Source of the DNA: Escherichia phage vB_EcoM_G37-3
Length of the DNA stretch: 64,000 nt
Strand: one strand, 5' to 3'
Sequence record: MK327941.1
Below, one piece after another: positions 5,956-63,570 of this stretch. A program made the translations under genes and the position numbers. Positions within the stretch are counted from its first letter, which is position 1. Each line of letters opens with the position of its first letter. A model generated the notes under the pieces. It worked only from the letters and a program-made list of their open reading frames with translations. It made no database searches and had not been told where the DNA came from.

Positions 5956-7854
5956 CAAAGCAAAAGATTACACAAATTCCTGATATTTTTAATGCTGCTA
6001 CATTCGATGAAATTAAAAGCGCATTAACAGACTGGATGAGAAACCAGGAAGAATTTAAAGATTTTGATTTTAATGGTGCTGGTATTAACGTATTGATGGA
6101 CTTGCTCGCATATAATACCCTTTATATTCAGCAATTCGCCAACGCCGCGCTATATGAATCTTTTATCAGAACGGCAATTAAGCGTAGTTCAGTTGTTCAA
6201 GCCGCGCAAGATTTAGGATATTTGCCAGCAAGTAAAACTAGTGCATCAACTACAATTATGTTGCATGTATCACATCCACGAAATCCGGCAAGTATTCGAA
6301 TCCCACGAGGAACTAAATTTATTGCAAGTGTGGACCGCCAGACGTCTTATCCGTTTGTTACTACAGAAGACGTTGTGAGCGTTTTAGGTTCAAATGGTTT
6401 ATATACTCCTATGCTTAAAGTCGCACAAGGTCGTATTGTTCGTACAGAAATGTTATTTGATCCGAAGAAACAAATTCTGATCCGCGATCCTGATATTGAC
6501 CGCGCTCAGGTTAAATTGTGGGTGGATGGGGCTGAATGGAAAGACTGGACGCGAGAAAGTATTGTTAATGCAACTGGCGCCAGTAATATTTTCTATATGC
6601 GTGAAACCGTAGACGGTCATACAGAAATCTTCTTTGGTGAAGGTGAATCAACTTTATCTGCTGCTGGCGGTGCACTGGAAGCAAATTATATTGGTGGACT
6701 TAAGCCGTCAACTGGTGCTAATATTGTTATTGAATATATTAGCACTAAAGGCGCGGAAGCAAACGGATCTGTCAATTTCACATACGCGGATACCCTTGCA
6801 TCTATCTCTATTGTTAAAATTATTGAGAATCCGACAAATGATCGTGATTATGTCGGTGCAGATGGTGGTGGTGATCCTGAATCAATCGAACGTATTCGTG
6901 AACTTGCTCCGGTAATGCGTGAATCTCAGCGTCGTTGTGTTACTGCTTCCGACTATGAGGCTTTTGTATCTAGCCGTTTTGGTAGTATTGTTCAGGCGGT
7001 ACAATGTTTCACCGATCGAGAAAAACCAGGTTATGCTTTTGTTGCTGTTAAGCCTAAATCTGGTTTGCGATTGACAACTATTCAAAAAGAAGATATGCGG
7101 GATTATCTGGCAAAATATAACCTTGCCCCTATCACACCGAGCATCATTGACCCTAACTATCTGTATATTAAACAGAATATTAAAGTTTCCTATTCAATCA
7201 ATGACTTATCAGAATCAGAGCAGTGGTTGCGCGGTGCGGTTATTGATCAGATTGATGCATATTATACCGACGAAGTGGAAATTTTTAACCAGACCTTTAG
7301 TAAGTCTAAAATGCTTGCGCGTATTGACAAAGCTGATGTATCTGTGATAGGTTCTAGTGCAGAAATAGAGATGGTTCGAGAGATCGACAACTTCTATAAA
7401 GCACCTATGGCGGGAATCAAGTTTTTAAACCAGTATAAGAGCGGAATCAAGTCTAGTTCGTTCAACTTCGAAAAGGACGGTAAACAATACCCGATCCATT
7501 ATGTAAGTACAGAAATGAACAAAGAATCCGGTTTAGCTAAATTGCTGGTTGGACCTTTCCCTGTTGATTCTACAATCGCTTTACCGCACTTCCGGCACTG
7601 ATTTTGATAAAGAGGTTATTGACGGTGCGGACCTATACTTTGAGGTTGGAGAGGTTCAGCATTATGACGACCTTATTTCATGGGATCTGGGTAAACTGAA
7701 TATCAATAGCGATCGCTTTACTGGTTCATATATTGAGTTGACAGCTAAACCGATTGCTGATAACATCTTTACTAAAGACGGTTCTTTGATCGTGTTTGAA
7801 AACGATCTCCGTCCTCAGTACACAACTATTAGTCTGGAGGCAATTGCTCAATGA
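5952..7854 (+). CDS. 6: baseplate wedge protein gp6, interrupted by an apparent +1 frameshift near 7550-7600
   Basis: Track ORF 5952..7601 (549 aa) continues in +1 frame as 7549..7854 (track start is TTG, i.e. not a real start); combined ~635 aa vs T4 gp6 660 aa; 3' end overlaps gene 7 start. Confidence 0.75.
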
Positions 7855-54366: not shown

Positions 54367-54699
54367 TTATAGTCTCCTGAATGGATCATCACGTAAATCA
54401 ATATCTTTTAAGAACTCATCCCATGAATGGCGGATATTGTTCTTAATTCTCCAGATAAGCGCAGGGATTGAACGCTCTCCCATCTGGAAGTATGGATCAT
54501 ATGATCCGTATGCCCAATATGCTACTACAATTCCACAATCAGAGCAATAGTATTCTATTTCACTTGCTGGCGACCAAAGTCCATCAATATGATCGGTGAT
54601 CTTGCTTTCGATGTTATGGCTATGACAATCAGGGCAACGGATGCAATGACCTTGTTTATCGTAATTTGACGTTAGCGAATACTTAAACAATCTCATCAT
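54367..54699 (-). CDS. hypothetical zinc-ribbon protein
   Basis: 110 aa; CIRCPDC..H and CSDCG Cys pairs; coupled to flanking genes. Confidence 0.55.
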   Translation of the reverse strand: MMRLFKYSLTSNYDKQGHCIRCPDCHSHNIESKITDHIDGLWSPASEIEYYCSDCGIVVAYWAYGSYDPYFQMGERSIPALIWRIKNNIRHSWDEFLKDIDLRDDPFRRL

Positions 54700-55412
54700 A
54701 GATCCTTATTGGCTTCAAATACTGCCTTTGCGAATCCTCGCGGGGTAAGTGACCTTATAGTCTTTGTTTTCGTTCCTTTCCCGCCTAGCTTAGAATGCTG
54801 TTTACTGTACCCTTTATTAATCTGCAAAGGTTTCTTTTCTGGCATCATAAAGCCTTGTCCGGTCCATAAGCAAGTCTTTTTCGGGTACATATCACGGGCG
54901 GCAATATACTCAGGAAACGTAGGATGCTTATCATCTTCCGGCAAATAACCGCCATATTCCCACGGATGAAACATATAATCAGGCTTACGCCACATGCTAG
55001 AGATAACGCTTACAGGATTCTCTATCATGTAGGGAACTCCTAGCCATTCACCCAAATAAGCGGTTATTTTAGCTGCCCGTACATCATGAACTTGAATCAA
55101 TGGTCCTTGTTCTCGTTTCTTTCGTTCAAAGTGCGCAGCGCCACTAACAGCTAAATTGGTGCACGGTGGGAATGCAAAGATAATATCCGGTTTCCCCCAT
55201 TCAAGGTCCATTGCTCTTTCCAGCCAGTTCAAATCAATCCATGTGTTTACATAGGTAATGTTTGGATGTTCAAATCTGGTATTATACTTTTTGTATGTGC
55301 CGTGGTCGCCATCATCAGCATTAAAGCAGATCACCTTATGACCTGCTTTAGCCCATTCTAGCCCCATTATCCCCGATCCGTCAAAGTTACAGAATATTAA
55401 TTTTTGTTTCAT
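54696..55412 (-). CDS. compact DNA (cytosine-5)-methyltransferase-like protein
   Basis: 238 aa; motif I-like FDGSGIMG, PC motif FAFPPCTNLAVSG, ENV-like YMIENPV, C-terminal RSLTPRGFAKAV. Confidence 0.55.
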   Translation of the reverse strand: MKQKLIFCNFDGSGIMGLEWAKAGHKVICFNADDGDHGTYKKYNTRFEHPNITYVNTWIDLNWLERAMDLEWGKPDIIFAFPPCTNLAVSGAAHFERKKREQGPLIQVHDVRAAKITAYLGEWLGVPYMIENPVSVISSMWRKPDYMFHPWEYGGYLPEDDKHPTFPEYIAARDMYPKKTCLWTGQGFMMPEKKPLQINKGYSKQHSKLGGKGTKTKTIRSLTPRGFAKAVFEANKDL

Positions 55413-55971: not shown

Positions 55972-55985
55972 CACTTTTTATAAAA

Positions 55986-56153
55986 TTATTTGTTAATTTC
56001 TGGTGCGTTGCTAGGATAGTAACCTTCTTTAACACCCAGATATTTTGCAACCATCCCTACAATCTTCTGTGCTACTACAATGTCAAATTTCAGATAATCT
56101 TCGCCGTGGGTTTCAATGATATATGCTTCACATGCTGCTTTAGTCTCGAACAT
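55986..56153 (-). CDS. hypothetical small protein (55 aa), copy 1 of a duplicated gene
   Basis: MFETKAACEAYIIETHGEDYLKFDIVVAQKIVGMVAKYLGVKEGYYPSNAPEINK; about 89% identical to 59246..59413. Confidence 0.55.
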   Translation of the reverse strand: MFETKAACEAYIIETHGEDYLKFDIVVAQKIVGMVAKYLGVKEGYYPSNAPEINK

Positions 56154-56186
56154 TTTGATTCTCCTATTTCGTTTCGTTATGTGTGT

Positions 56187-56215
56187 ATTATAGGGGATCT
56201 CCCGATCCCCGTCAA
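56187..56215 (-). promoter_or_regulatory. PeSL-like early promoter cassette (TTGACG, ggggatc..gatcccc spacer, TATAAT)
   Basis: Read in sequence. Confidence 0.55.
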
Positions 56216-56229
56216 CAACTTTTTTAAAA

Positions 56230-56511
56230 TTATTCGTGATTAGTTTCGATGTTGTGCATTTTGCACCAGTTCAGCCAATCACCCAGATCCTGATAGTTAA
56301 TGCTTTTATCTGCTGCCATCGTTTTTGTCTTGATACCCATATGTGCGTTATGAGTAAGCATTTTTACAGTGAACTCAATTTTATCACCTTTAGCTTTAAC
56401 ATCAACCAGTTTGGTCCACTGGCTACCAGCGCCGCGAATGTTCATACCAACGATGTTTCCGATGTATGCTTCTTTGTTTTTCAGGATTTCGGTTGCTTTG
56501 ATGAATTTCAT
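56230..56511 (-). CDS. hypothetical protein (93 aa)
   Basis: ORF track; SD. Confidence 0.55.
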   Translation of the reverse strand: MKFIKATEILKNKEAYIGNIVGMNIRGAGSQWTKLVDVKAKGDKIEFTVKMLTHNAHMGIKTKTMAADKSINYQDLGDWLNWCKMHNIETNHE

Positions 56512-56544
56512 TTTTGATTCTCCAGTTCGTTTCGGTATGTGTGT

Positions 56545-56573
56545 ATTATGCTATGTTCTTACTTTGGTGTCAA
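56545..56573 (-). promoter_or_regulatory. early promoter cassette without palindrome (TTGACA-N17-CATAAT)
   Basis: Read in sequence; same leader as the PeSL-like elements. Confidence 0.5.
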
Positions 56574-56581
56574 CAACTTTT

Positions 56582-56851
56582 TTAGATATTTTCAGAAATA
56601 AATTTTAAAACTTGACGTAAATGTTTCTCATCTTTGATAGTCGCCGGAAGTTCTTCTTTTACTTCCTGTGCAAGATAGATATTTCCGTTCCAAGTGAAAG
56701 ATCCGTCTTCGTTTACGCGATAGCTGAACATCCACTCGCAATCATTTTCGATTTCATATACACACAGAAGGGTGTAATCGTTAAAGCTATTGATTTCAAG
56801 GTCGAAGCCGTGACGTTTTGCAAAGTTGGTAGTGGTTTTAGTCAGAGCCAT
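56582..56851 (-). CDS. hypothetical protein (89 aa)
   Basis: ORF track; SD. Confidence 0.55.
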   Translation of the reverse strand: MALTKTTTNFAKRHGFDLEINSFNDYTLLCVYEIENDCEWMFSYRVNEDGSFTWNGNIYLAQEVKEELPATIKDEKHLRQVLKFISENI

Positions 56852-56891
56852 TGTTTGATTCTCCTAAATGGTATCTCGTTTCGATGTGTGT

Positions 56892-56920
56892 ATTATGCTA
56901 TAGGCCGGATCTGGTGTCAA
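56892..56920 (-). promoter_or_regulatory. early promoter cassette (TTGACA-N17-CATAAT)
   Basis: Read in sequence. Confidence 0.5.
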
Positions 56921-56935
56921 TGCCTTTTTTAAAAA

Positions 56936-56955
56936 AGCCGACACTAAGGTCGGCT
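56936..56955 (-). terminator. rho-independent terminator after reverse gene 56963..57271
   Basis: agccgac-ctta-gtcggct followed by U-run on reverse strand. Confidence 0.55.
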
Positions 56956-56962
56956 AATAAAA

Positions 56963-57271
56963 TCATTTAGACAAGTAATCATTCTGTGCAATACGGTCGG
57001 CGTATGCTGGTGTTATGTCAATCGCCAGCACTTTAACGCGTGCTTTCTTGCGACCTGGGTTTTCTCGTAACCAGTGCTCATGACCGTGAACATTTTTATA
57101 CTTTGATGCTTCTTCAAATGTACGGATCGGACCTGGGTAATCAGCGTAAAGGATCTCTAGGTCTTCGGTGATGTAAAAATATACATCGTAATTACTGTTC
57201 TCTAGTTTAAGCAGAGAGTTGCGAAATTGTGGTAAATTCTCGCGGGTAAATTCAACTACAAGATTTTTCAT
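56963..57271 (-). CDS. hypothetical protein, paralogue family A (YxYITED..HGHEHW..VLAIDI)
   Basis: 102 aa ORF track; shared motifs with six other ORFs. Confidence 0.55.
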   Translation of the reverse strand: MKNLVVEFTRENLPQFRNSLLKLENSNYDVYFYITEDLEILYADYPGPIRTFEEASKYKNVHGHEHWLRENPGRKKARVKVLAIDITPAYADRIAQNDYLSK

Positions 57272-57296
57272 AGTGATATCCTCATTCAGATAGATT

Positions 57297-57316
57297 AAAA
57301 GGGGGCTTAACGCCCC
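57297..57316 (-). terminator. hairpin plus U-run after reverse gene 57322..57609
   Basis: Reverse strand ggggcg-ttaa-gccccc then TTTT. Confidence 0.45.
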
Positions 57317-57321
57317 GTATA

Positions 57322-57609
57322 TTAAAACAGTCCTTCCTGTACACCGTAGTAGAGTTCATCGCTGATAATTTCATTAATGCGACGGTGTGCATATTCCTGA
57401 TTTGCGAAGTTATCAGCAAGTTCTACTTTAGTTTCGCCGTCATGAGTCCATTTAGTGATAACTTTACCATCTGCAAATTTGAAGTTGAACTCTTTAGCTA
57501 CTGCATCGCGTACCAGACGTGCGAACTTGTTGTTACGGATTGCATTATCGGTTTCGTGTGCAGCGTGAGCGAATTTGTTAACTTTCAGAGTGATAGTAAT
57601 GTATGCCAT
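57322..57609 (-). CDS. hypothetical protein, paralogue family B
   Basis: 95 aa; shares N..A.R..V.KA.AKEFN.K with 60851..61162. Confidence 0.55.
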   Translation of the reverse strand: MAYITITLKVNKFAHAAHETDNAIRNNKFARLVRDAVAKEFNFKFADGKVITKWTHDGETKVELADNFANQEYAHRRINEIISDELYYGVQEGLF

Positions 57610-57655
57610 AATTTGATTCTCCTAGTTAGAAAGTGTATCTCGTTTCGATGGGGAT

Positions 57656-57684
57656 ATTATGCTATATCCCCGATCCGGTGTCAA
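57656..57684 (-). promoter_or_regulatory. PeSL-like early promoter cassette
   Basis: TTGACA, 17-nt spacer, CATAAT on reverse strand. Confidence 0.5.
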
Positions 57685-57690
57685 CACTTT

Positions 57691-57969
57691 TTATAAAATA
57701 ATTTTTTGATATTTTTCTATGATGTTCGTGTAAGTCACATCAACCGCTAGCACCGTTGCTTCGAATCCACCGTTTAGCCAATGGCTATGATCATGATCGT
57801 GAAAGAAACCTAGACCAGTACGAAGACCTTCTTTATATTCTGCGCGTACATTCAGTTTGTCGTCGATAAACAGATAAAACCATGAATTTTTACTAGGATT
57901 GATGATACAACCTTTCAGATTAGGGAGAATATCACGACTAAGAATAAACTTATCACCTACTTTGAGCAT
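57691..57969 (-). CDS. hypothetical protein, paralogue family A
   Basis: Start at internal ATG 57969 (GAGGAAA SD); FYLFIDDKLNV..HDHDHSHW..VLAVDV. Confidence 0.5.
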   Translation of the reverse strand: MLKVGDKFILSRDILPNLKGCIINPSKNSWFYLFIDDKLNVRAEYKEGLRTGLGFFHDHDHSHWLNGGFEATVLAVDVTYTNIIEKYQKIIL

Positions 57970-57983
57970 AATATTTTCCTCAC

Positions 57984-58291
57984 TTATAAAGTTTGACCGT
58001 TGTTTTTCGCGTAATGCTGAATGCGTGCTTGATCTGCTTCCGCTGGTGATAGATTCCATGCGATCACTACAACTTCTGACGCATCATGATCATTATCACT
58101 TACCCAATGATTATGATTCATACAATTGTTTGCTATCGCGTGAGCAAATGATCTCATTACCGGAGACGTATAATCATAGTAACGGATTTTCAGATTTTCA
58201 TCAACGTACAAGTAGATCGTATACGGCTTATATTCAGTAACCAGTAACAGACAGTTACGCAATTCTGGGAAAATCTTTTTAGTTAATTTCA
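57984..58291 (-). CDS. hypothetical protein, paralogue family A
   Basis: Start at internal ATG 58291 (GAGGAT SD); YLYVDENLKI..NHNHW..VVIAWNL. Confidence 0.5.
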
Positions 58292-58293
58292 TT

Positions 58294-58512
58294 TTATAAT
58301 CCTCGGTCGCGGCTATAGTACACGGTACGCCATACAATTTCATGTTTCGTGTCGCTCCAGCACACGATCTCATTTACTCTTAAATCTTTGTTATCAACAA
58401 AAGATGAACATTGTGACGCTTCTTTCATCATTTTATCTGCTGTTTTCTCATCAAATACAGCACAGATTTCTTTATACACTCGATAATCTTTGAATTGACT
58501 CTGGATACTCAT
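58294..58512 (-). CDS. hypothetical protein, paralogue family C
   Basis: Start at ATG 58512; FKDYRVYKEI..ADKMMKEASQCSSF. Confidence 0.45.
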   Translation of the reverse strand: MSIQSQFKDYRVYKEICAVFDEKTADKMMKEASQCSSFVDNKDLRVNEIVCWSDTKHEIVWRTVYYSRDRGL

Positions 58513-58514
58513 AA

Positions 58515-58730
58515 TTAACACCAATCAAGAGTTTTTGAGAAAACCTCTATCCATTGTTGAGTATATGCGGTTTCTTTCCATGATACAATACCAGTAGAAT
58601 AATGGTTTTTGTTTCCAGAAAAGGACGGGCATTTTGATGCATCTTCCATCATCTTTTCGGCGAACTCTGGTTCGTATACCCGCAAAATCTGTTGATATGC
58701 TTTGTATTCTTTAAATTTGCTCATAATCAT
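58515..58730 (-). CDS. hypothetical protein, paralogue family C
   Basis: ORF track 71 aa; FKEYKAYQQI..AEKMMEDASKCPSF. Confidence 0.5.
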   Translation of the reverse strand: MIMSKFKEYKAYQQILRVYEPEFAEKMMEDASKCPSFSGNKNHYSTGIVSWKETAYTQQWIEVFSKTLDWC

Positions 58731-58989
58731 TCACTACCTTATCAGCTTCTTTTGTTGTTTTTACATCAACTGCGATAACCCGTAAAGGTTCGTCATGGTT
58801 CCACCAATGATCGTGAATATCGGCTTGTGATTTATCACCAAAGGAATCACGAATATCATTTTTACATTTATAGCTAATGTGACCGTCATAGTCAACATAA
58901 AGGTAATTATCGAAAATCGGCGTTTTTAAGATCATACCGAAAAATCTTTCTTTGTGTGTCTTATCCAGTGTTGCAGTAATTCGCATCAT
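58711..58989 (-). CDS. hypothetical protein, paralogue family A
   Basis: 92 aa; NYLYVDYDG..DIHDHWW..RVIAVDV. Confidence 0.55.
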   Translation of the reverse strand: MMRITATLDKTHKERFFGMILKTPIFDNYLYVDYDGHISYKCKNDIRDSFGDKSQADIHDHWWNHDEPLRVIAVDVKTTKEADKVVNDYEQI

Positions 58990-59001
58990 AATATATTCCT
59001 C

Positions 59002-59181
59002 TTAGAAAGGGATGGTCATTTCTTGAGCTTGTACATTCTCGTTAGGATTAAACTTCATCCAACCGATATTGTCTACCAGCATATGTACATTTTTATCATA
59101 TCCTACGTGAGTAGTCAACACTAAATGTGCTTTACCTTCAACGATGATTTCCATGTACTTCTGAACTTCGATAGCTTTCAT
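59002..59181 (-). CDS. hypothetical small protein (59 aa)
   Basis: GGAGAATC SD before ATG 59181; MKAIEVQKYMEIIVEGKAHLVL...; below track cutoff. Confidence 0.45.
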   Translation of the reverse strand: MKAIEVQKYMEIIVEGKAHLVLTTHVGYDKNVHMLVDNIGWMKFNPNENVQAQEMTIPF

Positions 59182-59213
59182 TTTGATTCTCCGTTTGTTG
59201 TCTTGATGGGAGT

Positions 59214-59242
59214 ATCTTACTACTCCCTTTAATCATTGTCAA
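59214..59242 (-). promoter_or_regulatory. PeSL-like early promoter cassette (TTGACA, gggagta..tactccc spacer, TAAGAT)
   Basis: Read in sequence. Confidence 0.5.
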
Positions 59243-59245
59243 CGA

Positions 59246-59413
59246 TTATTTGTTAATTTCCGGTGCGTTGCTTGGATAGTAGCCTTCTTTAACACCCAGA
59301 TATTTTGCAACCATTCCGGTGATCTTCTGTGCTACTACGATATCGAATTTCAGGTAGTCTTCACCGTGGTTTGCTACAATGTATGCTTCGCATTCTGCTT
59401 TAGTCTGGAACAT
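59246..59413 (-). CDS. hypothetical small protein (55 aa), copy 2 of duplicated gene
   Basis: MFQTKAECEAYIVANHGEDYLKFDIVVAQKITGMVAKYLGVKEGYYPSNAPEINK. Confidence 0.55.
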   Translation of the reverse strand: MFQTKAECEAYIVANHGEDYLKFDIVVAQKITGMVAKYLGVKEGYYPSNAPEINK

Positions 59414-59447
59414 TTTTGATTCTCCTATATCTCGTTGGTATGTGTGT

Positions 59448-59476
59448 AGTATAGGGGATCACCGATCCCCTGTCAA
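59448..59476 (-). promoter_or_regulatory. PeSL-like early promoter cassette (TTGACA, ggggatc..gatcccc spacer, TATACT)
   Basis: Read in sequence. Confidence 0.55.
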
Positions 59477-59484
59477 CAACTTTT

Positions 59485-59775
59485 TTATTCTTTATACGCA
59501 TATTTCATAAATTTGTCTGCTACTTCATCGGCATGTTCCGATTCTACGCCGGATTCGAGAACAATAGCAAGGTCGGTTTCGTCGTGACCTTCGTACCAGT
59601 GATTATGTGTGTCGTTTGAATCAATATAGAATTTATCACCTTCGTAAGTTCGAGCAAATACATCTAAATTCTCGTCGATGTAAAAGATCCAATCTTCATA
59701 AAGAATAACCGTATTAGCAAGGTTCTTATTACCTTCAACGAAAGGTTCGGCTACAAACAAATCAGTACGTTCCAT
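59485..59775 (-). CDS. hypothetical protein, paralogue family A
   Basis: 96 aa; WIFYIDENLDV..THNHWYEGHDE. Confidence 0.55.
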   Translation of the reverse strand: MERTDLFVAEPFVEGNKNLANTVILYEDWIFYIDENLDVFARTYEGDKFYIDSNDTHNHWYEGHDETDLAIVLESGVESEHADEVADKFMKYAYKE

Positions 59776-59790
59776 AGTATTTTCCTCAAA

Positions 59791-59952
59791 TTAAGAAAAA
59801 GCGTTGAAAACACCCGCCAACACAACTACGTTAGCGATAAGGCTTAAAAAGCATTTCTTGATACTTTCAGTGCAGATACCAATACTGGCAGGAATTACAC
59901 CGATCACGATAGCATAAAGAATAACTGCGATTTCTTGAAATACACCGTTCAT
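59791..59952 (-). CDS. hypothetical small membrane protein (53 aa)
   Basis: GAGGATAAT SD before ATG 59952; hydrophobic MNGVFQEIAVILYAIVIGVIPASIGI... Confidence 0.4.
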   Translation of the reverse strand: MNGVFQEIAVILYAIVIGVIPASIGICTESIKKCFLSLIANVVVLAGVFNAFS

Positions 59953-60000
59953 AATATTATCCTCAATTTGTGGGAGAGTATTACCCTCCCGATTATTGTT

Positions 60001-60029
60001 ATACTACATTACGCAAAATGGCGTGTCAA
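60001..60029 (-). promoter_or_regulatory. early promoter TTGACA-N17-TAGTAT overlapping the 3' end of the upstream ORF
   Basis: Read in sequence; followed by hairpin gggag..ctccc in leader. Confidence 0.45.
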
Positions 60030-60311
60030 TACTTCTTTTGCTGTTCCGCTAAGATTCTCGATCTCTCCTGGCATAACATCAACCGCCAGAACTTCTACAA
60101 CATCCTCTGATCCTAACCAGTGAGTATGACCTTTGTAGAACTTGATATCCCATTTATCGCTATCGCTAGCCCACCACACATCACCGTCTATAAAGTTGAT
60201 GTAAAGCACACTACGACACATTGAATTAGTTACTTTCAATACTGCGCCTTTCATCTCTTCCACGGTATGGTCTTCCATTTTGAAGACCTCGCCTACCTTA
60301 ACTTTTGCCAT
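60009..60311 (-). CDS. hypothetical protein, paralogue family A
   Basis: Start at ATG 60311 (MAKVKVGEVF..); YINFIDGDVWW..GHTHW..VLAVDV. Confidence 0.5.
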   Translation of the reverse strand: MAKVKVGEVFKMEDHTVEEMKGAVLKVTNSMCRSVLYINFIDGDVWWASDSDKWDIKFYKGHTHWLGSEDVVEVLAVDVMPGEIENLSGTAKEVLTRHFA

Positions 60312-60312
60312 G

Positions 60313-60579
60313 TTACATGCTCCGAATATGTTTAGATGCATCTTCCAGTTCGTCGATAGTGACACTGTGAGCCAGTAAGTGTACTGGTTGTGGTTCTTCA
60401 CCTTCCATAGTATTGATCAGATGACCGTTTCCTGGGTGGAATGTATCGTTGCCGTTCCAAATAGCATACACATCATCTTCTGTTACGTAGATAATAAGTC
60501 CAATCGGTGATTCTGGTAATTGAAAAATTTTACCCACTGCATCTTTGCGATTGTTTACGATATCTTTTACTGTCTTCAT
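60313..60579 (-). CDS. hypothetical protein, distant family A member
   Basis: 88 aa ORF track; LIIYVTEDDVYAIW. Confidence 0.5.
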   Translation of the reverse strand: MKTVKDIVNNRKDAVGKIFQLPESPIGLIIYVTEDDVYAIWNGNDTFHPGNGHLINTMEGEEPQPVHLLAHSVTIDELEDASKHIRSM

Positions 60580-60778: not shown

Positions 60779-60812
60779 GTTTGATTCTCCTAGTTCGTTT
60801 CGGTATGTGTGT

Positions 60813-60842
60813 ATTATAGGGGAGTTTAACCTCCCTTGTCAA
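60813..60842 (-). promoter_or_regulatory. PeSL-like early promoter cassette (TTGACA, ggggag..ctccc spacer, TATAAT)
   Basis: Read in sequence. Confidence 0.55.
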
Positions 60843-60850
60843 CAACTTTT

Positions 60851-61162
60851 TTAAAGTTTTTCCATGATAACGGTCATAATTACATCTTCTGCGCGGGCGG
60901 TCAGATTATCAGCGTCAGCATGTGGGCGGTTGGTTGTTACAGAGATAACACCGTTGCGCACTGGTTTGATATTGATATCAAGATGATCCGCGAAACGTTC
61001 GCCAGTTACAGAATGAATTTTGGTGTTAAATTCTTTTGCCAGTGCCTTGCGAACTTCACGAATCAGGATAGCGTTTTTCAGTTGGTTCTCCGCGCTCATG
61101 GTCTTCTGGGTGTTCATGGTTCCGTCGAAGTCAATCATTGGCAGCGTTACGATGTATTTCAT
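60851..61162 (-). CDS. hypothetical protein, paralogue family B
   Basis: 103 aa ORF track. Confidence 0.55.
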   Translation of the reverse strand: MKYIVTLPMIDFDGTMNTQKTMSAENQLKNAILIREVRKALAKEFNTKIHSVTGERFADHLDINIKPVRNGVISVTTNRPHADADNLTARAEDVIMTVIMEKL

Positions 61163-61249: not shown

Positions 61250-61594
61250 TTATTTTTTCATGAGCTTAATGGCTTCTTCCATAGCCAGCACATTTCGATA
61301 GTTAGGGTATCGTGTTAGATCGTCATACATTCGCTTAAGGGTGGAAACTTCCTCAAACTCTGGGTTTTCTAGATACAGTTGAACAAATTGTTTCTCTACC
61401 ATCTCGGCTTTTAGCTTGTCTGCTTGTTCCTGTTCATATGATTTCGTTGGACCCAACACCAACAAAATGATAAAGGTGATCAACGGGCTAATGATCAATG
61501 ATAGGATAACATAACCGATAACGCTACGGTTTAAACGGCTTGCGTACATGCCTACCAGGAAAACAAAAAGGATATAGATAAACAGAAAGAACAT
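61250..61594 (-). CDS. hypothetical membrane protein (two predicted TM helices)
   Basis: 114 aa; hydrophobic N-terminal half; AAGGAG SD. Confidence 0.55.
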   Translation of the reverse strand: MFFLFIYILFVFLVGMYASRLNRSVIGYVILSLIISPLITFIILLVLGPTKSYEQEQADKLKAEMVEKQFVQLYLENPEFEEVSTLKRMYDDLTRYPNYRNVLAMEEAIKLMKK

Positions 61595-61601
61595 ATAATG
61601 G

Positions 61602-62075
61602 TTACTCCTTATTTTCGCGCTCGTACTTTTCGAAATAAAATTCTACTGGCTGGTCATGAATTGACAGCAAGCCAAAGCGTTTAGCCGCTCGCAATCCCAT
61701 ATTGCGCTGAATGTACTTCTGGAAGTTCTCGCGTATACACTTACGCCAGTATTCTAAGCCCATACAGCTTTTATAAAGATTGCATTGCACACACGCCGGA
61801 TTCATGTTATCAAGTATATCATGTTCCGGTTTATGCATTCCTACAACCTTATACTTCCACGATCCATCATCATTACGGGCAATTCGTCCATTTTCATCAT
61901 AGACTACCTTTGAGCGTCGCAATACTGGTTTGATGTGGTCTGCGTGCCAGCGATCCCCTAGTTCCTCGCCACAATAGGCACAACGTCCACCATATTTCAT
62001 TTTCAGGATCTGGCGTTGCTCTTTCTTTGACAATTTTTTAGGTTTAGGGGCTTTCGCCCCTTCATTATCACACAT
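61602..62075 (-). CDS. HNH endonuclease-domain protein
   Basis: 157 aa; CAYCGEELGDRWHADHIKP ... NMNPACVQCN zinc-HNH motif; start overlaps DNA ligase stop by 8 nt. Confidence 0.65.
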   Translation of the reverse strand: MCDNEGAKAPKPKKLSKKEQRQILKMKYGGRCAYCGEELGDRWHADHIKPVLRRSKVVYDENGRIARNDDGSWKYKVVGMHKPEHDILDNMNPACVQCNLYKSCMGLEYWRKCIRENFQKYIQRNMGLRAAKRFGLLSIHDQPVEFYFEKYERENKE

Positions 62076-63570
62076 CGAATACCTCTTTTACTGTATTTGC
62101 AGTGGTCTTGTCGTAGCGAATACGTTTGATGATCGGGAGAAATAAAGAGAACTCCGGTTCATCTTCTTTACGTGATTTGCTGCGGATATACCCGTTGCAT
62201 GTCATCTCAATGACTTTTCCAATCAGGTTATGACGGTCAGCCCATAACATTTCTCGGTCGAGTTCATTTCGACGATCGAACGGAATTACACGTTCAATAC
62301 CATCATCACCTTTTTCGGTTGTAGTGTCGGTTAATCCCGATCCGGTGTTAGTCATCATTCGTCCGCACGCACTACGGACAGTAAAACCGCCTACCTTATT
62401 GGGGTCTTTACTATGCGGATATACATCAACAATTTCCGCGTCGAAGTCAATCACTTCTTTAAATTTAACCTGATCTTTACTACGGCGATCTTCAAATACA
62501 CCATGTAAATTTTTAAGGATAATACCTTCTAAGCCCATGTTTACATAGCGATGATATACTTCGCGAGCTTCATCTATATTGTTAACTACAGTGTTTTCGA
62601 TTATCTGAACACGAGGATCGTTAAGTTCTTCAACAATCTGTTTTAGTTCTTCGAATCGATCTTTATATTGCTTCGTTGCTTTCTCGTTTCCGTAATACAC
62701 ATCACGGTCGATAACATCCCAGACAGTATAAACAATACATTGGGCTTCTTCTTTTGGAATAGTTCCTTTAAGTGATTTGTTGAGGATACCATTTCCGGTC
62801 TGACGGTCTGCAACAACGGATTCTTTTACTGCTTCCGCTACTGGCGTTAATGGCATTTCCTCTTCTTCAAATATCCATGACAGAGTACCATCATAAACGC
62901 TTTCAACGAAGTTCTGCGCTGGTGTTTGCGAAAGGGTAGGCATATATACCAATTCGCCATCTAGAACAATTCCACGGCCTCGTAGACGCTCTAAAACCGC
63001 AAACAAATCATCAAGTCCCTGATAGGTATTACCTGAACGGGTATAGATTGCTAATGTTTCCCCGTCAATATCAGCCATACCACGAGCACCATCGCTTTTA
63101 AGTTGTGCATACGCCGGATACTTGATATTAGCAATAGCCTTATCAGAATATGACGATGCAAGGTGACACGGTTGCTGGGGGATCAGTTTCTTCCATACCT
63201 TGTTTGCAGTGGTAGCGGAACAACCACATTCCAGATCACGATTCAGGACCATCATTGCAACTTTAGCATCATCTTCTGACAAGCAAGTCAGAGTATCGGT
63301 AACTAGCTGTAATGCTGCGTTACCAGTTACTTGACGCGTGGCAAGTTTATTTTTAAAGACCTGTAATGCACCGGATAAAGACAATACAGACGAATAACGC
63401 GATGGTTTATCGTATTTCTTTACGCCAAACGTAACCTGTTTGCAATATGCCAGATAAAAGCATTCTTTCAGTGTTTCATTGCTTGCAGATTCTTTCAGGA
63501 TCTTTTCTTTCAGCGATGTTTTGTCTGTTGCTGCAAGCTGGTTAATGATATTAAGAATTGACATTTTCAC
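62068..63570 (-). CDS. 30: ATP-dependent DNA ligase gp30
   Basis: 500 aa; QLKSDGARGMADI (adenylation Lys motif), NKSLKGTIPKEEAQC, EGIILKNL resemble T4 DNA ligase. Confidence 0.9.
   Translation of the reverse strand: MKMSILNIINQLAATDKTSLKEKILKESASNETLKECFYLAYCKQVTFGVKKYDKPSRYSSVLSLSGALQVFKNKLATRQVTGNAALQLVTDTLTCLSEDDAKVAMMVLNRDLECGCSATTANKVWKKLIPQQPCHLASSYSDKAIANIKYPAYAQLKSDGARGMADIDGETLAIYTRSGNTYQGLDDLFAVLERLRGRGIVLDGELVYMPTLSQTPAQNFVESVYDGTLSWIFEEEEMPLTPVAEAVKESVVADRQTGNGILNKSLKGTIPKEEAQCIVYTVWDVIDRDVYYGNEKATKQYKDRFEELKQIVEELNDPRVQIIENTVVNNIDEAREVYHRYVNMGLEGIILKNLHGVFEDRRSKDQVKFKEVIDFDAEIVDVYPHSKDPNKVGGFTVRSACGRMMTNTGSGLTDTTTEKGDDGIERVIPFDRRNELDREMLWADRHNLIGKVIEMTCNGYIRSKSRKEDEPEFSLFLPIIKRIRYDKTTANTVKEVFDV

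Follow-up and report, generated by a model that had tools for sequence, protein, structure and literature searches.

A superfamily of small proteins with a His-x-His-Trp signature in a hyperplastic region of Krischvirus phages

Between positions 56,963 and 60,579 of a 64,000-nucleotide (nt) stretch of Escherichia phage vB_EcoM_G37-3 (sequence record MK327941.1; the whole stretch is called the window below), seven small genes, named A to G here, code for what is almost certainly one superfamily of phage-specific, single-domain proteins, each about 90-100 residues long; six (A-F) are clear members and one (G) is degenerate. The phage belongs to Krischvirus, the RB49-like, T4-type 'pseudo-T-even' coliphages, and the 58 deposited genomes that match the 3.75-kb region at 90-98% identity are all Krischvirus. 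Databases already list the genes as hypothetical proteins and in five separate PHROGs; what is new is their unification, together with the fusion partners and the naturally occurring deletions and insertions described below. A preliminary description of the window, made from the sequence alone, had listed seven open reading frames (ORFs) as paralogues. All seven are real and lie on the minus strand, and their coordinates (Table 1) are those first given, except that C ends at 58292 and not at 58291. Paralogy is clear for six of them, the seventh (G) being related at a distance.

The resemblance between A-F is far beyond chance, as judged by the shuffled-sequence controls that the preliminary description had itself proposed. 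In pairwise Smith-Waterman comparisons (500 shuffles each), z-scores range from 2.5 to 22.6, and for 11 of the 15 pairs the observed score was never reached by any shuffle. Moreover, a profile built from any five of the window copies places the sixth next in rank among the 582 window ORFs, with E-values from 3.9e-16 to 7.1e-6; the real score was reached by 0 of 1000 shuffles, and the best unrelated window ORF had an E-value of 0.06 or worse. On these sequence comparisons A-F may be regarded, beyond doubt, as true paralogues. The copies share 20-34% identity, in keeping with the repeated duplication and diversification first suggested, and the duplications that produced them are old.

The window copies match their own PHROGs end to end (E 1e-48 to 5e-65), and all of these PHROGs are labelled 'unknown function'. 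The catalogue thus holds the same proteins as five unrelated-looking families (phrog_9345, phrog_17255, phrog_15972, phrog_15965 and phrog_16486), with none for G, whereas here they are joined as one superfamily with a defined signature. The phrog_9345 profile, which includes A and C, cross-matches B, D and E at E-values of 7e-5 to 2e-3.

This signature can be written [YF]-[IV]-D ... H-x-H-W ... V-h-A-x-[DN]-V ... A-[DN]. All of A-F keep the H-x-H-W block and, ahead of it, a strand that ends in aromatic-aliphatic-Asp. Across a set of 22 non-redundant members, which share less than 70% identity with each other, Tyr33 is conserved in 20 of 22, Asp35 in 18, His64 in 21, and His66 and Trp67 in all 22. 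In the same set the block is followed by a V-h-A-x-[DN]-V strand and then by the A-[DN] start of a helix, and the two segments of the alignment most variable in length flank the H-x-H-W motif. Every motif string quoted in the preliminary description is present. Its downstream V-(L/I)-A-(V/I)-D block holds for A, B, D and F and is degenerate in C (VIAWN) and E (VLESG).

The position of G is less straightforward. Against a profile built from A-F of the window, G gives an E-value of 0.53, with a score that is also attained by 7 of 1000 shuffles. When families rather than single sequences are compared, the G family aligns with the A-F family by hhalign with 93% probability (E 2.5e-7) over all three motif blocks, and with orthologue-enriched profiles the two families are reciprocal best non-self hidden Markov model (HMM) matches (E 0.026 and 0.0038). 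At the level of fold, Foldseek pairs the model of A with that of the G orthologue of phage JSE in BFVD (E 9e-3, TM 0.56/0.64). The model of G itself is of low confidence, with a predicted local distance difference test score (pLDDT) of 64, and shows strands and helices in the same order as A; a Foldseek search with it found a single match, G's own orthologue. The motif block of G reads G-N-G-H-L, the first His and the Trp being lost, and this version is kept among the G orthologues. G is therefore a remote, borderline member of the family, upheld at the profile-profile and fold levels only.

Few proteins beyond the orthologues of A-F carry the signature. A profile search of 5.8 billion proteins gave 90 matches, all of them A-F orthologues of at least 55% identity. 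Of 1.84 billion cluster representatives searched exhaustively with HMMER, only 22 reached E<=1e-3, and a broader profile made from 22 sequences added one further protein (P0111). A tblastn search with two distant members against 50,697 phage records gave nothing outside Krischvirus, a locus search with protein D recovered two IMG/VR contigs only, and an HMM scan of the 1572 ORFs of the RB49 genome found exactly six members, all in its hyperplastic region HPR3. The distant members lie on short metagenomic contigs crowded with small phage ORFs. One of these contigs, of 2.1 kb (L002, metagenome SRR8048117), carries five HxHW domains in four genes. Distant members are also found on a 20-kb T4-like contig (L023), which encodes a ligase 72% identical to that of the window and has two of them in the same slot between ligase and Alt. 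As far as these sequence searches reach, the superfamily is confined to HPR3 of Krischvirus and to a few related uncultured T4-like phages. A 1034-residue eukaryote-like protein with MAM-like repeats (P0099) also appeared, at an E-value of 1.7e-8 summed over seven weak stretches; it was judged a repeat-inflated motif coincidence (FYMDRKG/GHSHTW) and set aside.

An AlphaFold2 model of A, based on an alignment of 49 sequences (pLDDT 82, predicted TM-score 0.79), is made up of five strands and two helices, all short, and a further helix at the C-terminus, the elements being b5-7, b19-23, b30-34, b40-44, b78-83 and a88-100. It agrees with the predicted topology b-b-b-b-(loop with motif)-b-a, an order also seen in the low-confidence G model. 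Foldseek searches of BFVD with the A model retrieve the orthologues from kvi, PHB13 and JSE as well as the JSE G orthologue; the sole match outside the family is a weak one in Pseudoalteromonas phage pYD6-A (E 0.044).

Two histidines alternating on an extended segment are a classic metal-binding arrangement, as in the 'HFHW' of carbonic anhydrase, motif 1 of cupins and the HxHxDH of metallo-beta-lactamases (MBLs). The family shares with these proteins the two His at positions i and i+2, and with alpha-carbonic anhydrase the Trp that follows. However, its domain is half their size or less, and third and fourth ligands are not identifiable. No sequence or fold match to cupins or alpha-carbonic anhydrases was found, no third His/Glu ligand, and no match in Pfam or in PDB sequence searches; nor does the family show the HxHxDH motif, the alpha-beta-beta-alpha architecture of about 200 residues or the Pfam Lactamase_B match that mark MBLs. 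Pfam at E<=1 gave sub-threshold noise on B only (PROCT, 18.7 bits against a cut-off of 23.6). Sequence-profile searches of the PDB gave nothing with one alignment and, with another, two chance-level matches (E 0.057 and 0.5).

The five short beta-strands of the model also recall KOW/SH3-like barrels, and the K-V-G-D/E-x-F start of B, F and the metagenomic protein P0091 is reminiscent of the KOW motif; the family differs in having an added insertion of 30 residues with HxHW and a C-terminal helix. A KOW/SH3-like identity was not retained: no KOW Pfam match was found at E<=1 and no significant structural match, the sole hint being a free-text label, 'KOW2-KOW3 domains of Spt5', given by one database source to a B orthologue (P0071).

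The family genes sit in a variable region in which every gene is on the minus strand, with a DNA methyltransferase gene (54696-55412) on one side and the genes for an HNH endonuclease and DNA ligase gp30 (61602-63570) on the other. This is the hyperplastic region HPR3 of RB49 and phi1 (ORFs 189-213), located between alt/DNA methyltransferase and HNH/ligase gp30. The RB49 orthologues of A-F are ORF197, 199, 200, 203, 206 and 208, all annotated as 'hypothetical protein', and no work on their function turned up in literature searches. In the hyperplastic regions of RB49 and phi1, cassettes of ORFans flanked by PeSLs (promoter-early/stem-loop elements) were described by Arbiol et al. in 2010 (PMC2839356) and reportedly by Comeau et al. 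in 2014 (PMC4122927). The 2010 study treats the ORFs of the region as unrelated ORFans, and the word paralog is never used in it, whereas members are assigned here to one superfamily.

Table 1. Members of the superfamily and associated features in the window (the number in brackets after P is that of the promoter; aa, amino acids; RBS, ribosome-binding site)
Feature	Coordinates	Strand	Description
A	56963..57271	-	102 aa; orthologue of RB49 ORF197; phrog_9345; motifs YFYITED, HGHEHW; own RBS (TGAGGATATCACTATG)
B	57691..57969	-	92 aa; RB49 ORF199; phrog_17255; motifs FYLFIDD, HDHSHW; last gene of the o59a-D-o71-o76-C-B operon
C	57984..58292	-	102 aa; RB49 ORF200; phrog_9345; motifs YLYVDEN, NHNHW
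D	58711..58989	-	92 aa; RB49 ORF203; phrog_15972; motifs YLYVDYD, HDHWW; 3' end overlaps start of the 71-aa gene
E	59485..59775	-	96 aa; RB49 ORF206; phrog_15965; motifs IFYIDEN, THNHW
F	60009..60311	-	100 aa; RB49 ORF208; phrog_16486; motifs YINFIDGD, GHTHW; start coupled to stop of G
G	60313..60579	-	88 aa; IIYVTEDD; GNGHL replacing HxHW; remote, degenerate member
o71	58515..58730	-	71-aa gene between D and C; phrog_8471; homologue fused to a C-like domain in metagenomic locus L020
o76	58294..58524	-	76-aa gene; second phrog_8471 paralogue; likely ATG at 58512; directly upstream of C; corresponds to second repeat of the L020 fusion
PeSL cassette	60779..60852	-	TTGACA, GGGGAG..CTCCCT stem-loop in spacer, TATAAT; score 12/12; P(60842) reads into a 59-aa gene, G and F
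Promoter-like site	59972..60029	-	TTGACA-17-TAGTAT, then GGGAGGG..CTCTCCC stem-loop at 3' end of F; P(60029) reads into the 53-aa gene and E
PeSL cassette	59414..59487	-	TTGACA, GGGGATC..GATCCCC, TATACT; downstream of E, ends the E unit; P(59476) reads into a 55-aa gene
Promoter-like site	59193..59245	-	TTGACA-17-TAAGAT and stem-loop; P(59242) reads into the tightly packed o59a-D-o71-o76-C-B operon
PeSL cassette	57612..57706	-	directly after B; ends the D..B operon; P(57684) reads into a 95-aa gene and, probably by read-through, A
Hairpin GGGGCGTTAAGCCCC	57302..57316	-	between the 95-aa gene and A; terminator-like or attenuator-like
Intrinsic-terminator-like hairpin and T-run	56936..56955	-	immediately past A
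Direct repeat, copy 1	55985..56222	-	55-aa gene and PeSL; repeat family D3, 87% over 172 nt
Direct repeat, copy 2	59245..59487	-	55-aa gene and PeSL; with copy 1 brackets the A-D block

The intergenic spaces are occupied by repeated cassettes of 70-95 nt, in which a near-consensus promoter (TTGACA-17/18-TATAAT) is combined with a GC-rich stem-loop. Eight promoter-like sites with embedded stem-loops score 11-12 out of 12, and three repeat families (D1, D2 and D4) are present in 3-5 copies each, at 60-100% identity. Within the predicted transcription units the genes are tightly joined: D overlaps o71, the ATG of C lies 1 nt past the stop of the upstream 76-aa gene, the o71/o76, o76/C and G/F junctions have gaps of 1-2 nt, and C and B are separated by 14 nt containing an RBS. 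A and E each have their own RBS. The cassettes correspond in region (HPR3) and in composition to the PeSL elements flanking the cassettes of RB49 and phi1, for which strong activity both as promoters and as terminators has been shown experimentally (PMC2839356); in the present phage this activity is read from the sequence. Since sigma-70-type sites are present and the published PeSL assays are available (PMC2839356), early expression of the family genes is predicted and well supported, and the assignment of these genes to an 'early region' in the preliminary description stands.

Several neighbouring genes deserve mention. The methyltransferase bordering the region has an FxGxG-like motif (FDGSGIMG) and an FPPC motif, reminiscent of C5-cytosine methyltransferases. 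A 2026 paper (PMC13390438) reports glucosylated methyl-deoxycytidine of unexplained biosynthesis in some isolates of Krischvirus, and plain cytosine in a sibling phage of >99% identity. At 61250-61594, again on the minus strand, lies a gene for a 114-aa protein with a hydrophobic N-terminus, the orthologue of RB49 ORF211, which was reported by Arbiol et al. to be homologous to an ORF of the Vibrio fischeri superintegron (PMC2839356); it is missing from Phi1, GEC-3S, JK32, UPWr_E1, G5211 and FL04. The 53-aa ORF between F and E (59791-59952, minus strand) is hydrophobic and membrane-like, has no PHROG match and is found in one of the 14 comparison loci (at least 65% identity and at least 80% coverage). 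Three further gene pairs occur in the region: two 55-aa genes of phrog_8009 (55986-56153 and 59246-59413, 87% identical in DNA), two genes of about 100 aa of phrog_7474 (57322-57609 and 60851-61162) and two tandem genes of about 70 aa of phrog_8471 (58294-58524 and 58515-58730). The order phrog_7474, HxHW member(s), phrog_8009 is seen twice, which hints at an old segmental duplication.

The evolution of the region was followed in 14 related phage loci, with 6-15 sequences per gene including the window. Pooled Nei-Gojobori ratios of nonsynonymous to synonymous substitution (dN/dS) are 0.08-0.20 for A-F and 0.04-0.06 for the ligase, HNH and methyltransferase genes; the value of 0.44 for G rests on very few changes. 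A-F are under purifying selection, somewhat relaxed, and not under gene-wide positive selection. The preliminary description had taken the diverged copies as typical of an arms race with the host; with orthologues under purifying selection and duplications that are old, this claim is not supported as worded. E is the most allele-variable member (71-97% identity between phages), with a dS of 0.68 against about 0.1 in the flanking genes, and the D allele shared by Phi1 and GEC-3S is only 58-60% identical. For both genes the pattern is one of allele replacement rather than gradual change.

Gene content varies as well. The B/C slot of JSE is occupied by two different, divergent C-like paralogues; E, F and G are missing from G5211, and A-D from Cognac and FL04. 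The deletion in the latter two corresponds to window positions 56223-59244, that is, A-D and six other genes, and falls exactly between the two direct repeats of Table 1. G, among the loci compared, is present only in the window and in FL15, G2248, G2494, UPWr_E1 and JSE, and is missing from RB49, Phi1, GEC-3S and JK32. As an insertion it is precise, scar-free and the size of a gene, parting the RBS of F from the ATG, and neither end bears a PeSL; the junctions are at 60311-60313 and 60577-60579 of the window, the RB49 counterpart being positions 6438-6440 of its locus (L001; ..ACTAA ATG.. versus ..GTAAC ATG..). Since members are lost and gained across relatives, they are individually dispensable accessory genes.

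Insertion, deletion and replacement of the same kind between close relatives have been described for PeSL cassettes, and recombination between PeSLs yields mini-circles, which makes the region a recombination hot spot (PMC2839356). The variation seen here fits this shuffling model, with extra recombination routes: unlike in a model based on PeSLs only, the A-D deletion occurred through a 240-nt repeat that includes a duplicated gene, and G was inserted at an RBS/ATG junction. Loss, insertion and replacement of cassettes fit accessory or adaptive genes; host conflict is not thereby demonstrated.

Two metagenomic proteins are fusions that include family domains. P0091 (L002:823-1434, SRR8048117) has two such domains in tandem within 203 aa. 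In a 260-aa protein of another contig (L020:318-1100, SRR8048112), a C-like HxHW domain is preceded by two phrog_8471 domains, an arrangement that follows the order of the separate, overlapping genes o71-o76-C of the window (57984-58730), and gives a Rosetta-stone hint of a physical complex. Together with the tight translational coupling of the genes, these natural fusions suggest that the proteins form homo- or hetero-oligomers with each other and with phrog_8471 proteins. A 172-aa 'E' annotated in FL04 was also considered as a fusion; it looks like a start-codon over-extension instead.

What these proteins do can be addressed with less assurance than their relationship. The mechanism tentatively favoured here is a shared His2(+Asp) site for a metal or ligand in oligomeric early accessory proteins. 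Each protein would fold into a compact beta domain of five strands that ends in a helix, in which the strand-end Tyr-x-Asp and the His-x-His-Trp would form one conserved site between two loops of variable length. This site would most likely be His2(+Asp) and accommodate a divalent metal or a small ligand, while the variable loops and the surface charge could set the specificity of the individual paralogues. Probably assembled into homo- or hetero-oligomers, among themselves and with the products of the neighbouring phrog_8471 genes, the proteins might act early in infection by binding or modifying some component of the host or of its defences, in a role that is accessory and not essential. Indeed, an invariant His pair and Trp retained at about 20-30% identity, between variable loops, suggest a common site ringed by specificity-determining loops, and the metal site already suspected in the preliminary description is plausible. 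The net charge of the members ranges from about 0 (A, B) to -17 (E, very acidic); that the proteins are neutral to strongly acidic argues against DNA binding, and a possible role as DNA mimics was considered for the acidic members, especially E.

Several observations weigh against this mechanism. G is conserved although one His and the Trp are gone, so that not all members need the site. The conserved candidate ligands number only three, and one of them, Asp35, is replaced in four of the 22 members, including A, which has Thr. The HxHW segment is the least confident part of the A model (residues 51-70, mean pLDDT 63-66). Each fusion rests on one short metagenomic contig (1.2 kb for L020), and assembly or frameshift artefacts are possible. 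Finally, no similarity to characterised anti-defence or host-takeover proteins was found in Pfam, PDB, PADLOC or fold searches, the PADLOC defence profiles giving 0 matches at E<=1.

A rather unlikely alternative is that the paralogues are stoichiometric binders of different host proteins, diversified in an arms race, and that His-x-His-Trp serves merely to stabilise the fold, the Trp in the core and the His as caps or hydrogen-bond partners, with neither metal nor ligand. Loops around the motif that are hypervariable in both length and sequence would be expected of such binders, as would net charges that differ widely between paralogues; cassette turnover and allele replacement between close relatives (the dS of E, the 58% allele of D) point the same way, and G keeps the fold signature without the full motif. 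However, gene-wide dN/dS values of 0.08-0.20 denote purifying selection, alternating His kept in 21-22 of 22 diverged members point to a functional site more than to core packing, and no host target is known.

Two more specific proposals make the metal the centre of an activity. It is distinctly improbable, if conceivable, that the family represents a new minimal metal-binding fold whose domain pairs, with phrog_8471 proteins, would form a metallo-complex destroying or sequestering a host immune signal or nuclease, the paralogues covering different targets; more speculatively still, such a complex might take part in the cytosine hypermodification reported for some Krischvirus isolates (PMC13390438). 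Very improbable is a miniature metallo-enzyme, in which two half-domains would pair, in a homo- or heterodimer or within the natural tandem fusion, into an alpha-beta-beta-alpha sandwich that resembles a minimal MBL-type hydrolase and degrades some molecule of the host, such as a nucleotide used in immune signalling. The strand-end Asp followed by HxH resembles motifs I and II of MBLs, and the tandem fusion P0091, at 203 aa, has about the size of a minimal MBL domain; against this, neither Lactamase_B nor any other Pfam family matched at E<=1, the PDB gave no sequence match, the motif is HxHW and not HxHxDH, and it would be unusual for an enzyme to occur in six or seven paralogous copies. That the genes are functionless, as passenger ORFs spread by PeSL recombination or as chance or non-coding similarity, is scarcely credible: every member is dispensable in some natural isolate and the region is a recombination hot spot producing mini-circles (PMC2839356), but the reading is largely refuted by dN/dS values well below 1, by motif residues invariant across paralogues of about 25% identity and by shuffle controls that exclude chance similarity, and the ORFs, RBSs and translational coupling are conserved across genomes.

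Whichever mechanism applies, the family is an instance of ordinary accessory-gene duplication in a variable phage region, which overturns nothing known and provides a useful lead. Its dispersal over five PHROGs suggests that clustering at the PHROG level under-merges small phage proteins that diverge fast. Adaptive genes with an influence on host range are presumed to lie in the hyperplastic regions of T4-type phages, almost none of them with a known role; seven of the roughly 20 'ORFans' of one such region now form a single superfamily with a sharp, testable signature. The natural knock-outs (Cognac and FL04 without A-D, G5211 without E-G) and the fusion partners make these hypothetical proteins experimentally tractable.

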